Shown: in pieces, positions 1-62,135 of the stretch
How the letters are laid out: each line of letters opens with the position of its first letter
Position numbering within the stretch: position 1 is the stretch's first letter
IMG/VR virus record: IMGVR_UViG_3300021373_002523
Coordinates: 1 to 64,000 of that record
Strand: one strand, 5' to 3'
DNA from: a virus
Length of the DNA: 64,000 bases
The notes under the pieces: generated by a model
Databases searched by the model: none
Told to the model about the DNA's origin: nothing
Seen by the model: only the letters and a program-made list of their open reading frames with translations
Made by a program: the position numbers and the translations under genes

Positions 1-757
1 AGTTTGTGCTTGGCCTTACAGAATTAGAATTAGGGCGAGAGCTGGAATTGATCCTGATAGTATTGTTGCTATTACTGTTGTTGCTATTACTGTTGATCCT
101 GATAGTTCTCGTTGGTCTTACACGGATTGTTGGTTTTGTGGACCTAGTTGGCTTTGTGCGGACAGTACGGTTATTTTGAAAATATGTGCGACTATCAGAT
201 GTGCTGCCATCTGAGACTGAGATGGATCTAGATCTATTAGAATTAGAATAACCAAAGCGGTTTCTATTTGAGTACCTCCAACCATATACATTTCCTAAAT
301 TGCCAGTTCTCGGTCCATATACATAGGAGTATTGCCACGGATTGTTCCACCTATTCCAATACCAATAATTTGAGCTCCAATTACCATACCAAGGATATTG
401 GTTCCAGCCATTCCAATAAGTATAGCCAGTGTTAAATCCCCATTGCCAGTTTAACCAATAATCATGAGGACTTTGCCACCCAAATCTGTATAGCCTGTTA
501 TAGAAATAGTTTTGATGAAAGAAGCTATAGTTTTGAGTGCTTAGCCAATAGTAATAATCATTAGCAAAACCAAAGTCTGTTTGCAGCTTCCATCTTAGTT
601 GACTTACTGTGTTTATCTCATCTATCGTGACTCTTTCAGATCTTAAAGTATCTACATAGCCAGCTGTATTGAGTGTTTGGTATTGCCATTGAACTCCACA
701 GCTATTAACTGAGAAAAATAAGACTATTATGCAGATGAGTTTAAGTAAGTTTTTCAT
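1..757 (-). CDS. Putative lipoprotein with W/Y/N/G-rich then R/S/N/T-rich low-complexity regions (3' end outside window)
   Basis: Own translation from ATG at 757 is open to base 1: MKNLLKLICIIVLFFSVNSC (lipobox-like)...YWLNWQWGFNTGYTYWNGWNQYPWYGNW...RINSNSNNSNSNN. Absent from the ORF track because there is no stop in the window. Confidence 0.8.
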   Translation of the reverse strand, partial: MKNLLKLICIIVLFFSVNSCGVQWQYQTLNTAGYVDTLRSERVTIDEINTVSQLRWKLQTDFGFANDYYYWLSTQNYSFFHQNYFYNRLYRFGWQSPHDYWLNWQWGFNTGYTYWNGWNQYPWYGNWSSNYWYWNRWNNPWQYSYVYGPRTGNLGNVYGWRYSNRNRFGYSNSNRSRSISVSDGSTSDSRTYFQNNRTVRTKPTRSTKPTIRVRPTRTIRINSNSNNSNSNNTIRINSSSRPNSNSVRPSTN

Positions 758-793
758 AAGAAAGTTTTAGTTGATTTAGTTATATATTGTGAC

Positions 794-822
794 AAAAAAG
801 GGACCACCGCTATGATGGTCCC
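794..822 (-). terminator. Rho-independent terminator
   Basis: GGGACCATC-ATAGC-GGTGGTCCC-TTTTTT on the minus strand, downstream of 882..2039. Confidence 0.85.
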
Positions 823-881
823 GTGGGGGCGTGGTTTAATCAAGGTAAACGGAAATAAACCTTGATACCGTTACCCGGATA
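794..881 (-). ncRNA. Candidate 3'-UTR-derived small RNA (hairpin, C-rich linker, terminator)
   Basis: 8-bp stem AUCAAGGU/ACCUUGAU (839-866) with loop UUAUUUCCGUUU, then CCACGCCCCCAC and the terminator. Confidence 0.35.
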
Positions 882-2039
882 TTATGCCTGTCCCATCATC
901 CTTGCAGATTCTGATGCAGTTAGCAATTGGCTATTTGCAAAAGGATCAAATTGGAGTAATGCTTCAGTGTCGTAATTCTTTTTCATTAAAAGGTTACCTG
1001 CTGTTACCATTAGATTACCAGTTTTATGATCGTCGATATTGTATTTGTTATCGTTAGATGCAAAGTTTGTCATACCATTTACAACTTCCCATACTGACAT
1101 TCCTGATTTAGCATTTTGCAATTGTTTTGTAGTAAAGGTAGATGGCTCAGCTCCAATATCAGAATAAGCTTTCATTGCTCGGTCAATTGGAATAAACCTT
1201 TGAGCATATTCGTAATCAACTTTCTTATCTGTTGAAAGAATAGCCGACATTGCTTTTTGAACCTCAGCAAGACTTGCATCAGTGTGATTAGCAGTTTTAA
1301 TCTTATCAGCCAATCCAATAGGTTGGAAACCTGTAGATGCCATTGAGATCATATGCTCGTTAAACTCATTGATAGATTTATCAGTCAGTTCATGCAAACC
1401 GTAGTTTTCAGAGAATGCAGTTGAAGTCATACCATTTGAACAAACCAATCGGTTCAAATAAGGTGATACTTCCAATCCTCGGATAGGAGTGTTTCTAAAT
1501 GTTACACCAGTATTAAAGATTTCATCTGACATTCCAGGTACAGTAAATACACCGTTCTTAGATACACAGTTGATTGTAGCTCCACCTGAAGGATCTGAAC
1601 CAAAGTCAGTTACATCTAAATCATATTGGTCAATATAACGCTCAGCAAAATTGATGAAGTTTTCATTTGAAATACTTGCATAACCTGCAGGTAGAATGTT
1701 TGTTACTTTCTTTGCTCTTGGATCAACCAATAGTGTAACCGTTTGGTCGTTCTTAGATGATTTCATAGATTTCATCATGTTAACCAATTCTTTTAGTCCG
1801 TCATTACCGAACCCGGCTGTAAACCTTTTAGCAAAAGCTTTAGGAATTCGTAGCCTTCCGAGTAGTTTACCAAATGCATAGGGAGTTAGTTCAATTTTAA
1901 CTCCGTCAATCTCAATATGAGTATTGTCAATTACATTGAATTCTGAAAGGTTAAGTTCCTTTCTCATTACTTCATTTCTAATCGCTTCTTCCTTTTTTTG
2001 GTTGAATGCGGTAGTTCCTAGTGTTGTTAAATTTGTCAT
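882..2039 (-). CDS. DUF932-like phage protein
   Basis: 385 aa; RLVCSNGM motif recalls DUF932; has an early-type promoter. Confidence 0.55.
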   Translation of the reverse strand: MTNLTTLGTTAFNQKKEEAIRNEVMRKELNLSEFNVIDNTHIEIDGVKIELTPYAFGKLLGRLRIPKAFAKRFTAGFGNDGLKELVNMMKSMKSSKNDQTVTLLVDPRAKKVTNILPAGYASISNENFINFAERYIDQYDLDVTDFGSDPSGGATINCVSKNGVFTVPGMSDEIFNTGVTFRNTPIRGLEVSPYLNRLVCSNGMTSTAFSENYGLHELTDKSINEFNEHMISMASTGFQPIGLADKIKTANHTDASLAEVQKAMSAILSTDKKVDYEYAQRFIPIDRAMKAYSDIGAEPSTFTTKQLQNAKSGMSVWEVVNGMTNFASNDNKYNIDDHKTGNLMVTAGNLLMKKNYDTEALLQFDPFANSQLLTASESARMMGQA

Positions 2040-2085: not shown

Positions 2086-2115
2086 TAAATATAATCAATT
2101 GTTTTGGGAATTGAA
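2086..2115 (-). promoter_or_regulatory. Early-type promoter TTCA-N18-TATATTTA
   Basis: Same spacing in 9 intergenic regions; resembles the Bacteroidota -33/-7 promoter. Confidence 0.7.
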
Positions 2116-2175: not shown

Positions 2176-3042
2176 TTATTTATCCGATTCTTCTTTACCA
2201 TCCAATCCGAATAATGCATCGAATTGCAAACCTGATTTCTTAATCTTTTCTTTTTCAGCTTTCTTTAATTGCTTAAGGCTTTCAGATTTTTTGAACCTTT
2301 CAGTATCATATGTTACATCACCACTAGCAGAAAGATCAAAATACATTTGCTTACCTACATGACCACGTCGGTTTTTACTAAAGGTAACATACCTTTCTTC
2401 CTGATCCCTTTCATCTACGAACCTAATCTCCATCATACCAGTTGTCATATGCTTCAGTTTATTAGAACCGACGAATGTACCACCTTTGTTAACTTGTTGG
2501 ATATTAAGGAATGCAGTAAAGTGTTTTCCTTTGTTATCTCCGAGGTTATGTTTGTACATCAAATCTAGGAGGTACTTTTCAGAACTGTTTCTGGTCATTC
2601 TCCCAGCTTCTCGGATAGTTTCTTGCAATTCAATAAATGAGTCGGTTAATACAATATCATAACCTTCTGCAAGGATTTCTTCTAAGACTGCTTTTGGATC
2701 TTCATCATCGGCAATTTCTTGTGGAAAGAAAATATCCAATTCTCCGAACTTAGGATACCTTTTAACATAAAGGTAAAGATCCACCTGGTTCATCTCAGCT
2801 GAAATGAACAATACTTTTGAACCGCTTGCTTTTGCATTTGCAATGATATCCAGTGTTACAGTAGATTTACCTACACCAGGATCTCCAACTACCATCCAGT
2901 TAGTTGCTTTTGGAATACCTCCATCAATACTGAACAATCCGTCCAGTGGAGTATTTGTCTTGTGAGCCTCGAATAAACCCTTCTCATATTTTACATTTGA
3001 GATTTGAGTCAGCCTTGAATTGATTTTTTGTACTTTTGCCAT
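2176..3042 (-). CDS. RadA/Sms-like RecA-superfamily ATPase
   Basis: Walker A GDPGVGKST, Walker B VLTDS, KNRRG resembling RadA KNRFG; no Zn finger or Lon domain. Confidence 0.75.
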   Translation of the reverse strand: MAKVQKINSRLTQISNVKYEKGLFEAHKTNTPLDGLFSIDGGIPKATNWMVVGDPGVGKSTVTLDIIANAKASGSKVLFISAEMNQVDLYLYVKRYPKFGELDIFFPQEIADDEDPKAVLEEILAEGYDIVLTDSFIELQETIREAGRMTRNSSEKYLLDLMYKHNLGDNKGKHFTAFLNIQQVNKGGTFVGSNKLKHMTTGMMEIRFVDERDQEERYVTFSKNRRGHVGKQMYFDLSASGDVTYDTERFKKSESLKQLKKAEKEKIKKSGLQFDALFGLDGKEESDK

Positions 3043-3081
3043 GTTTTCCGTTTTTAGGTTTAGTATTAATTAATTATAGTA

Positions 3082-3151
3082 TAAATATAACACAATTTGT
3101 TGGGAATTGAACTATAAATTCTTGTTTTTTTCAAAAAAGTTATTAACAATT
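3082..3151 (-). promoter_or_regulatory. Early-type promoter with upstream AATTGTTAATAACTT box
   Basis: TTCAATTCCC-N12-TATATTTA (3082-3111), box at 3137-3151. Confidence 0.7.
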
Positions 3152-3622
3152 GTGGAATTCATAATGTGGATTCTCAACTGTGTCCGTTGATTTATTTAAC
3201 GGACCGTATGCAAGATCCGCCCAGGTTTTTGAACCGATGTTTTTCCAATGGTTATAGTCAGCCATTGATGAGAAGGAACTGTGAATGTCTCCAACTGTAA
3301 TGTTTTCCAAGATTTCTTTATCTATGATGTAGAACTTACCACCTTTCATTGCAAGAGCAGTTAGATAAACACCGCCTTCAGTTTTAATTTCAACTGTATG
3401 AAGTGCAGATTTCTTCCAACCTGTAACAATGTTACAAAGATAGTCTTTTCCGTCAGAAATGGTTAGGAACCCAGCTCTACATTTGGTAACTGCTCTATAC
3501 TCATATTGCTTATTCCAATCAAGGTTATGGTCATGAGCAGTAAATTTGTAAAACTTACCTTTTACCATTTGAGTGATTGAGTAACTGCCTCCGAAAGGTG
3601 TATTGTGTTTTGTAATTTGCAT
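3143..3622 (-). CDS. Hypothetical early protein
   Basis: 159-aa ORF with its own early promoter and AACGGAAAAC leader. Confidence 0.7.
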   Translation of the reverse strand: MQITKHNTPFGGSYSITQMVKGKFYKFTAHDHNLDWNKQYEYRAVTKCRAGFLTISDGKDYLCNIVTGWKKSALHTVEIKTEGGVYLTALAMKGGKFYIIDKEILENITVGDIHSSFSSMADYNHWKNIGSKTWADLAYGPLNKSTDTVENPHYEFHNC

Positions 3623-3646
3623 GTTTTCCGTTTTTTAAATTATATT

Positions 3647-3715
3647 TAAATATAATACTATTTGTTGGGTTTTGTACTATACTTTGGCAGTTTTTTTAGA
3701 AAGTTATTAACAATT
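3647..3715 (-). promoter_or_regulatory. Early-type promoter with upstream AATTGTTAATAACTT box
   Basis: TATATTTA at 3647-3654, CCC at conserved spacing, box at 3701-3715. Confidence 0.65.
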
Positions 3716-18763: not shown

Positions 18764-19489
18764 TTATTTTTTAGTTGTTGGCATTAACCACATCCCATCT
18801 TTTAATATAACTTCCATTAATCCAGGTATAGTTCTTAAAAGGTTTAAACTCTTAAGAGTATCATGCTTAAACATTTTAGTAACTTCTTCTCTTATTCTTT
18901 CTTGAGAAACTACATCTTCTAATTTTCTTAGCAAACCTGGCTCTTGCATACATTCCCATAATTCATCATCAAAGGTAAAACCTTTAGTGATGGAAAATCT
19001 TAAGCCTCTTATCATTCTTAAAGGATCGTCCATTAAAGTTTTCATTGGAGGTAATGGAGTTCTAAGGATTCTATTATTTAAATCTGTAACACCATTAAAC
19101 ATATCTATGATTTTACCGTTCTCATCTTTACATAAAGCATTAAGAGTAAAATCTCTTCTCATTAAGTCATCTTCCAAAGTACCTAATTCCAATATAGGTT
19201 TTCTAGTTCCAGGAATAACGCCTACTTCTTTCCTAGACATAACAAAGTCAGCAACTAAGCCTTCATGTTTATGCCCTTTAGGAAACATAGCTCTTACAGT
19301 AAAACAGTCTGGTGTTTTTAAGAATATTTTGAATCCTTCAAATTCAAGGATAGATAGCATTTTACCCCACCCTTCTTCTACTGTCATATCAGTATTATCT
19401 AATACAAAAGTAAAGTCGATGTCTTTTGTATGAACTCCTAAGATTTCGTCCCTTACACAACCACCGACTTCAAATATTTTATGTTCCAT
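18764..19489 (-). CDS. tRNA nucleotidyltransferase (CCA-adding) / poly(A) polymerase family
   Basis: GGCVRD, DIDF, DLMRRDFTLNAL, DDPLRMIRGLRF, SQERIREE. Confidence 0.9.
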   Translation of the reverse strand: MEHKIFEVGGCVRDEILGVHTKDIDFTFVLDNTDMTVEEGWGKMLSILEFEGFKIFLKTPDCFTVRAMFPKGHKHEGLVADFVMSRKEVGVIPGTRKPILELGTLEDDLMRRDFTLNALCKDENGKIIDMFNGVTDLNNRILRTPLPPMKTLMDDPLRMIRGLRFSITKGFTFDDELWECMQEPGLLRKLEDVVSQERIREEVTKMFKHDTLKSLNLLRTIPGLMEVILKDGMWLMPTTKK

Positions 19490-19511
19490 TTTCCGTTATT
19501 TAATTATATTA

Positions 19512-19580
19512 TAAATATAATACATTTTCACGGGATTTGAACTATAGTTTCACGTTTTTTTCAAAAAGTTATTAACAATT
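19512..19580 (-). promoter_or_regulatory. Early-type promoter with AATTGTTAATAACTT box
   Basis: TTCAAATCCC-N12-TATATTTA (19512-19541), box at 19566-19580. Confidence 0.7.
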
Positions 19581-19664: not shown

Positions 19665-19777
19665 TGGGTGGTAGGGGAATCGAACCCCTGATCGCATATC
19701 TCCGATTTACTCATCGTTGCTAGCATTAACTTCCAACCGTTAAGAAATATGCAGCCGTACCACTTGGCTAACCTCCC
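19665..19777 (-). tRNA. tRNA-like RNA with 42-nt insertion in the anticodon loop; isotype undetermined
   Basis: GGGAGGU/ACCACCC acceptor (A4:A69 mismatch), D-arm GCC-AAGUGGUAC-GGC, stem GCAUA/UAUGC around 49 nt, T-arm AGGGG-UUCGAUU-CCCCU; no CCA. Confidence 0.75.
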
Positions 19778-45835: not shown

Positions 45836-45850
45836 AATTTCCGTTTTATT

Positions 45851-62061: not shown

Positions 62062-62135
62062 TGGAGAATATCGGAGTCGAACCGATGGCCTCCTGCGTGC
62101 AAGGCAGGCGCTCTAGCCAGCTGAGCTAATTCCCC
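62062..62135 (-). tRNA. tRNA-Ala(UGC)
   Basis: GGGGAAU...CCUGC-CUUGCAC-GCAGG...UUCGACU...AUUCUCCA; G3:U70; CCA not encoded. Confidence 0.97.

Follow-up and report, generated by a model that had tools for sequence, protein, structure and literature searches.

Exposed RNA loops that silence phage transcripts are known from temperate phages. In the c4 RNA of P1 and P7 and the CI RNA of P4, such loops pair with short repeated leader boxes and block expression; the targets are leaders of phage early or anti-repressor transcripts, and the RNAs, which serve immunity, arise by processing from the 5′ portion of the operon to which the target itself belongs. The effectors of early shut-off in T4 are proteins, the translational repressor RegA and the endonuclease RegB, which acts at GGAG. 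In phage lambda, the boxB hairpin, composed of a 5-bp stem and a GNRA-like pentaloop, lies next to boxA in the arrangement cro-nutR-tR1. Among bacterial messages, a regulatory 3′ UTR has been described for vigR of Staphylococcus aureus (PMC9217812), and pairing between 5′ and 3′ UTRs for icaR mRNA of the same species (PMC3868564) and for hbs of B. subtilis (PMC5737220). Ribosomes of the Bacteroidota do without the Shine-Dalgarno (SD) sequence, and initiation depends on unstructured A-rich leaders (PMC6847099, PMC7797042).

Here we describe a conserved hairpin in the 3′ UTR of an early gene of a marine T4-like phage, together with a short box in the leaders of early genes that is complementary to the hairpin loop. 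The element is solid; the circuit suggested by the complementarity is plausible and specific, and is presented as a candidate only.

Genome context and carrier gene

The stretch of DNA analysed, referred to here as the window, comprises 64,000 nucleotides of IMG/VR record IMGVR_UViG_3300021373_002523. It is AT-rich (31% GC), with nearly all genes on the minus strand, and its gene content includes T4-type topoisomerase II subunits, thymidylate synthases, a Clp-type ATPase, a DnaQ-like exonuclease, a CCA-adding-type enzyme, a tmRNA and tRNAs. Adjoining the phage tmRNA (62139-62510 (-), Rfam 74 bits) is a tRNA (62062-62135 (-)), and beside the gene of the CCA-adding-type enzyme (18764..19489) is a tRNA-like match (19665-19777 (-)). 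No SD-like k-mer is enriched before the start codons of the window, where A/T-rich words alone are enriched, in agreement with an earlier first-pass annotation that had described the other leaders as simply A-rich.

The gene carrying the element in its 3′ UTR encodes a 385-aa protein without a Pfam match, whose only PHROG match is phrog_1362, of unknown function; a PDB sequence search with the protein returned nothing. Its neighbours in the Atlas belong partly to DUF932, which provides a lead, and a lead only, to a DUF932-like phage protein. The AF2 model (pLDDT 87) gave no PDB match with Foldseek. With VIA-align the N-terminal domain appears weakly OB-like (RPA70 DBD-C, Z 6.3, r.m.s.d. of 3.7 Å, 88 residues), a match below the noise level of that method, about Z 8; a frataxin-like match is likewise below noise. 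Located after the terminator of the carrier gene is an open-ended ORF (2..757), the product of which is very rich in W, Y and N and probably secreted or lipoprotein-like. Between terminator and ORF is a late-type AATATATAA motif (about 780-788 (-)); the motif and the ORF are conserved in group A relatives only.

Relatives of the carrier gene were collected from IMG/VR (13), metagenomes (80 loci kept) and MAGs (3), with protein identities of 69-100%, and the 93 IMG/VR and metagenome loci yielded 58 distinct 3′ UTRs. A protein search found 647 homologues, all unnamed, on contigs of up to about 219 kb, whereas IMG/VR scans with homologues at 53%, 47% and 44% identity gave no matches. Given the abundance of this gene family in marine metagenomes, the element is ecologically widespread. 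Three short contigs with a homologue sit in MAGs labelled Bacteroidota, Balneolaceae and Rhodospirillaceae. These labels, and a TAnnTTTG-like promoter box described below, suggest a Bacteroidota-type host, and the host of this marine T4-like phage family is probably in the Bacteroidota. The contigs of relatives often break near the carrier gene, and 3′ of its terminator, in groups B and C, are repeated TTTCACAC...CTCACACATTCTAGAG units (L012, L043, L065, L084 and others); repeats and contig breaks may indicate a repeat or terminal region.

A conserved hairpin upstream of the terminator

Positioned between the stop codon (884-882) and the intrinsic terminator (822-794) of the carrier gene is a hairpin (876-827), in which the 8-bp stem ATCAAGGT/ACCTTGAT encloses the loop UUAUUUCCGUUU (Table 1). 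The terminator follows as GGGACCAT..GTGGTCCC and T6, and the 3′ UTR as a whole folds with an MFE of -35.1 kcal/mol (z -4.1). The first-pass annotation had called both this stem (866-859/846-839, loop 858-847) and the terminator, which folding and the terminator scan confirm. The C-rich linker that it had placed between them is in fact the 3′ arm of an outer helix (876-873/830-827), which co-varies among close relatives. Pairs of the terminator also co-vary among relatives. Opening of the loop is predicted to cost 0.9 kcal/mol.

Table 1 Features of the hairpin, its carrier gene and the early leaders in the window.
Feature	Position	Strand	Details and basis
Carrier gene, 385-aa early gene with the element in its 3′ UTR	882..2039	(-)	ORF list
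Extended stem-loop	827..876	(-)	Outer helix 876-873/830-827, GG/CC step, inner helix and loop; single-sequence fold
Inner stem, 5′ arm AUCAAGGU	859..866	(-)	Fold and relatives
Loop UUAUUUCCGUUU, core UUUCCGUUU as candidate seed	847..858	(-)	Core invariant in relatives
Inner stem, 3′ arm ACCUUGAU	839..846	(-)	Fold and relatives
Intrinsic terminator	794..822	(-)	Stem-loop 822-800, U-run 799-794; terminator scan
Own-mRNA leader box AACGGAAA	2052..2059	(-)	12 nt before ATG 2039; predicted hybrid -11.0 kcal/mol
Early promoter box TTATATTTA for 2039	2086..2094	(-)	Copies at 3082-3090, 3647-3655, 19512-19520
Leader box, RecA/KaiC-like ATPase gene	3045..3052	(-)	2 nt before ATG 3042
Upstream box ATTGTTAATAAC	3139..3150	(-)	More copies at 3703-3714, 19568-19579; inverted near 2161
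Leader box, 159-aa gene of unknown function	3625..3632	(-)	2 nt before ATG 3622
Leader box, CCA-adding-type nucleotidyltransferase gene	19490..19497	(-)	Abuts ATG 19489 (0 nt)
Intercistronic box, 62-aa ORF	45838..45845	(-)	2 nt before ATG 45835; best predicted hybrid, -11.4 kcal/mol

Rfam, run on the whole window at the gathering threshold and including the c4 family, matched only the tmRNA and two tRNAs, without a match to c4; on 740-940, with E up to 10, it gave only three unrelated sub-threshold chance matches. A literature search for the motif strings returned unrelated papers only.

Among relatives, TTCCGTT lies inside a hairpin just 5′ of an intrinsic terminator in all 58 distinct 3′ UTRs, and the loop core UUUCCGUUU is invariant (58/58) within U-rich loops of 12-20 nt. 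The stems, by contrast, are unrelated in sequence between groups yet still paired (for example, UCAAGGU/ACCUUGA, UUAAGGU/ACCUUAA, GCAGUAG/CUGCUGU, CCAGG/CCUGG, CCUGG/CCAGG, CCGGG/CCCGG and AACC-n-GGG/CCC-n-GGUU). With the motif forced open, at least five enclosing pairs form in 38 of 44 distinct sequences; the distinct stems number 33, and z averages -1.9 relative to shuffled flanks. In group B, which is homogeneous in length, 93% of cells are paired and 2/5 pairs show compensatory change, a result matched by 0/500 shuffles and by none of the slid registers; in group A, RNAalifold on 11 close relatives detects exchange of C-G for U-A in the inner helix as well as in the outer one. Owing to the differing loop lengths, unanchored MAFFT/RNAalifold alignment across groups gave no structure, and a group-B covariance model (R1), too narrow in that it recovered group-B hairpins only, was not used for cross-group alignment. 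Five longer genomes (63-81 kb) carry a single such hairpin apiece, always directly before the terminator. The distant phage G005 (236 kb, homologue of 37% identity) has no hairpin, and the element is also absent from LR756508 (26% identity), the only match in cultured collections. The hairpin is thus a genuine, previously undescribed conserved structured RNA element, a new and well-supported annotation even without a mechanism.

The strand on which the element acts is given by context only. Sense and antisense hairpins fold with equal stability and G-U accounts for only 10/335 stem pairs, so that wobble pairs prove nothing; the hairpin is invariably placed within the transcribed unit, after a stop codon and before an intrinsic terminator on the sense strand, in a genome transcribed in one direction. 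The symmetry of the fold would also suit a role at the level of DNA, as a cruciform or single-strand hairpin (origin, packaging or nicking) or as a duplex site AAACGGAAA in both orientations, and relatives' contigs often end near the carrier gene. Such a role is very improbable in view of the hairpin's place in the transcript, of the co-varying flanking arms, which a double-strand site does not need, and of the leader boxes described below, which track the start codon rather than the promoter and occur in eight sense copies against one antisense copy.

Hairpins recognised by proteins classically combine an invariant loop with a variable stem, and this is the form that the element takes. Were it a protein-binding RNA site, its match to the leader box would be coincidental. 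It could then be an operator for the product of its own gene, a target of some other RNA-binding protein from phage or host, a determinant of processing or stability, or a site of the antitermination type. Its strict linkage to one gene fits autoregulation, for which the sub-noise OB-like resemblance of the 385-aa product (Z 6.3) offers a faint hint. Because the next gene in the window is served by a late-type AATATATAA motif of its own, there is no obvious need to control read-through, which counts against antitermination. Searches for the RegA (PF01818), CsrA (PF02599) and RegB (PF10715) families found none in 4-5 relatives, which are fragments 22-77% complete, and identified no candidate binding protein.

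Located between the stop codon and the main hairpin in eleven distinct relatives is a second, long and near-perfect hairpin (L085:3312-3475, equivalent to G004 about 3310-3475; L048, L067, L068, L070, L073, L076, L080, L087, L089 and L091). Its loop, UUUUACC(C)GUU, again contains CCGUU, and the complement of this loop, AACGG(G)UAAAA, is similar to AACGGUAAAA, a variant from leaders of the gene itself. A conserved CAATTGATTATGAAATAAA box stands just 5′ of the main hairpin in groups B and C (L012, L013, L043, L054, L065, L079 and others). The first 11 nt of this box equal CAATTGATTAT of the early promoter module, with the -7-like box destroyed; the box is absent from the window, and could be a protein site or a promoter remnant.

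A leader box in first cistrons of early transcripts

The motif AACGGAAA occurs nine times in the window against 1.49 expected, a count that 0/100 shuffles reach. Eight copies are on the coding (minus) strand; the ninth (848-855), on the plus strand, corresponds to the hairpin loop. Of the eight sense copies, five are no more than 20 nt away from a start (binomial P = 1.8e-6, about 103 starts), which bears out the clustering at start codons on which the first-pass annotation had leaned, and its coordinates (2052, 3045, 3625, 19490 and 45838, respectively 12, 2, 2, 0 and 2 nt before ATGs) are correct. The box-bearing leaders are predicted to be unstructured, opening at a cost of 0.1-2.2 kcal/mol.

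Four of the five boxes sit in one repeated early promoter-leader module, composed in order of ATTGTTAATAAC, TTCAATTCCC, TTATATTTA, a short leader, AAACGGAAA and ATG. The TTATATTTA box is one that we take to resemble the Bacteroidota -7 element TAnnTTTG. The fifth, at 45838, is intercistronic and has no early promoter upstream.

The ATTGTTAATAAC box is a GTTA-n-TAAC inverted repeat that precedes the TTATATTTA box by about 55 nt. This box recurs with identical spacing in L114, L132, L151, L155, L167, L170, L177, L183, L186 and G005, the leaders of which lack the ACGG box; the promoter architecture is therefore wider than this phage family. G005 has the same upstream box and a -7-like box, but the leader box in just 1/32 leaders. 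What looks like a second promoter class, AAAC-N16/17-RTATAA, occurs 14 times in the window against 2.9 expected, with 13 sites on the minus strand (for example, 7002, 26588, 33319, 44715, 57959, 61210 and 63754). In the L003/L055/L062 lineage, the hairpin-bearing gene is driven by an AAAC-N17-ATATAA promoter.

Across relatives, AAACGG(A/U)A is present in 82 of 126 distinct early-type leaders; leader motif and hairpin are both under selection, the former strongly. Conservation centres on AAACGG, within A-rich flanks; A is almost invariant at -1 and -2, and the base after CGG is A in 64 boxes and U in 18 (ACGGU). The distance to the ATG is 2-8 nt in 59 of the 82 leaders, whereas that to the promoter box ranges from 4 to 33 nt. 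This tight spacing on one side and loose spacing on the other tie the box to the start codon and not to the promoter, which argues for a role in RNA or translation over a DNA operator.

The orthologues of the RecA/KaiC-like ATPase offer a comparison within one gene. Where the orthologue has its own early promoter, the box is present in 11/11 distinct upstream regions; where it is translationally coupled to the upstream gene, in 0/32. AAACGG(A/U)A therefore marks the first cistrons of early transcripts, a new and well-supported annotation irrespective of mechanism. In lineages of group A, the ATPase gene (2176-3042) comes with an early promoter and box of its own, and in groups B and C it is coupled to the upstream gene, with TAA overlapping or abutting ATG; these differences show the gain or loss of early promoter modules as cassettes.

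Standing where an SD or an operator would, the box could be a signal in its own right, a weak SD, a CsrA-like ANGGA site (a pattern that ACGGA fits) or the target of a RegB-like nuclease, with the hairpin unrelated to it. Its specificity for early first cistrons (ATPase orthologue, 11/11 vs 0/32) would be expected of such a signal, which would leave a complementary, invariant loop unexplained, and we regard this explanation as unlikely. An SD is complementary to the anti-SD CCUCC and lies 5-10 nt before the start; sites of CsrA/RsmA have an invariant GGA, usually in a hairpin loop. Both had been offered as alternatives in the first-pass annotation, and neither is supported. The GGA of the box is all that matches an SD, and with its end 1-5 nt from the AUG it lies too near; starts show no enrichment of SD-like k-mers, and Bacteroidota ignore the SD (PMC6847099, PMC7797042). 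A CsrA-type ANGGA site is unlikely because the GGA varies among boxes, 18/82 reading ACGGU; the box, moreover, is not in a hairpin. PF02599 was not found in four relatives, all of them fragments. A reading of the loop as a mimic of 16S rRNA was rejected, no CCGTT being present in the 16S of the Balneolaceae MAG with a related contig, a MAG that may not be the host.

Complementarity of loop and leader

The loop core UUUCCGUUU is the exact complement of the box AAACGGAAA over the 9 nt of the two conserved cores. Contiguous complementarity between loop and leader has a mean of about 9 nt and in some relatives extends to 13 nt, as between AAAAACGGAAAUU and a group-C loop. The predicted hybrids are modest, at -9.2 to -11.4 kcal/mol, and among 103 predicted targets the five leaders with the box rank highest. 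When the loop is shuffled at constant composition, 6% of trials equal the mean of the top five and 11% equal the number of targets that reach -8 kcal/mol or lower; a U-rich loop finds partners in A-rich leaders regardless. Information resides in the CGG/CCG core alone, and we estimate that two conserved cores would be complementary by chance in 1 in 16 to 1 in 64 cases.

Flanking positions do not co-vary: the match of a loop to leaders of its own genome is 8.87 nt and to those of others 8.73 nt (p = 0.25). As the cores themselves never vary, compensatory change does not prove pairing. A U-U mismatch with the loop results in the 18/82 boxes that read ACGGU, and a helix of 9-10 bp within a closed 12-nt loop would be sterically strained. 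Of the base-pairing circuit proposed in the first-pass annotation, the complementary, conserved and open cores stand, while flanks without co-variation, modest hybrids and the 6% of shuffles that match weaken it. Together with the shuffled-loop control, which is only borderline, these flanks would be consistent with the protein-binding site considered above, and the second CCGUU hairpin could equally be a second protein site. That reading has to take the complementarity of two conserved motifs as chance, at the odds just given, and the two elements are missing together from G005, which lacks the hairpin and has the box in 1/32 leaders; we consider it rather unlikely, although it is the strongest of the alternatives.

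Pairing might instead be purely in cis, as in icaR, the loop meeting only the leader of its own mRNA and controlling its translation or decay. The own-leader box of the window (2059-2052) provides the longest match, 10 nt including the first stem base; AAACGG is kept in the own leader in 44/53 of the distinct leaders listed; and the loop of the second hairpin, UUUUACC(C)GUU, complements the own-leader variant AACGGUAAAA. Three lineages (L029/L033/L039, L003/L055/L062 and L060/L072/L074), however, keep a fully conserved hairpin while their own leader is without the box, and other early leaders in these genomes keep it. Any action would accordingly be mainly in trans, and the self-targeting proposed in the first-pass annotation is not general. 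In the own leader, the box also usually stands 13-22 nt away from the AUG, farther than the 2-8 nt of other early genes, and most own leaders read ACGGU, mismatching the loop. Action confined to cis is decidedly unlikely.

The reading that we favour, with a probability of about 0.5, is that the hairpin acts by base pairing, in trans, with early leaders. Both the pairing and the repression that it would cause are inferred from sequence.

Proposed mechanism and significance

Under the favoured reading, the hairpin would be co-transcribed with the DUF932-like early gene, in an RNA ending at the gene's intrinsic terminator. The open, U-rich loop would display UUUCCGUUU and pair with AAACGGAAA, which precedes the AUG by 2-8 nt in the very short leaders of messages made from phage early promoters. 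Pairing would cover the site at which the ribosome lands and thereby reduce translation, and perhaps stability, of early messages, with repression growing as the carrier RNA accumulates. The active form may be the whole mRNA or a processed 3′ fragment.

A wider version of this scheme is possible, if doubtful. The 3′ UTR would be a global riboregulator, an RNA equivalent of T4 RegA/RegB, titrating the box in all early first cistrons and timing the switch from early to middle expression; the box would double as an SD-independent enhancer of initiation, masked by the loop, and some lineages would make the 3′ UTR from the second promoter class.

If the pairing is real, this would be, as far as we know, the first RNA-based circuit for early-gene shut-off in a T4-like phage, and would add a rare example of translation under riboregulation in a Bacteroidota-type system, in which no SD is available and the regulator has to mask an A-rich leader box. 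The novelty lies in the setting, which combines a T4-like phage, an SD-less host and a dedicated leader box common to early first cistrons.

Comparison with known systems

By sequence or model, the element belongs to none of the families compared here. With regulatory 3′ UTR RNAs of the CpxQ, SroC, DapZ and vigR type it has in common that it shares the terminator of an mRNA, has a short, conserved and accessible seed upstream of that terminator, and would target translation-initiation regions of other mRNAs. The seed is in a hairpin loop, whereas theirs is in a linear 5′ region; the candidate is phage-encoded, its target would be an A-rich leader box and not an SD, no chaperone is known for it, and there is no sequence or Rfam relationship.

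As in icaR and hbs, a motif in the 3′ UTR is complementary to the ribosome-binding region of the gene's own leader. Here, in contrast, the box is common to many early leaders and the hairpin persists in genomes without an own-leader box, so that pairing within the own mRNA is not found in all members and action in trans is needed to explain the conservation.

Lambda nut/boxB shares the invariant loop, the variable stem and the location between an early gene and its terminator. The loop described here differs in being 12-20 nt long and U-rich, no boxA-like element is conserved across groups, and the element, read directly from the sequences, is not a boxB/nut site.

The outcome proposed is that of T4 RegA and RegB, namely the silencing of many early mRNAs through a short motif in the initiation region. 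The proposed effector differs in being an RNA, and neither protein family was detected in the fragments of the relatives. The logic of loop to box is that of c4 and CI RNA; the present element differs in residing in the 3′ UTR of a T4-like phage without a lysogeny context, with no match to the c4 family of Rfam.
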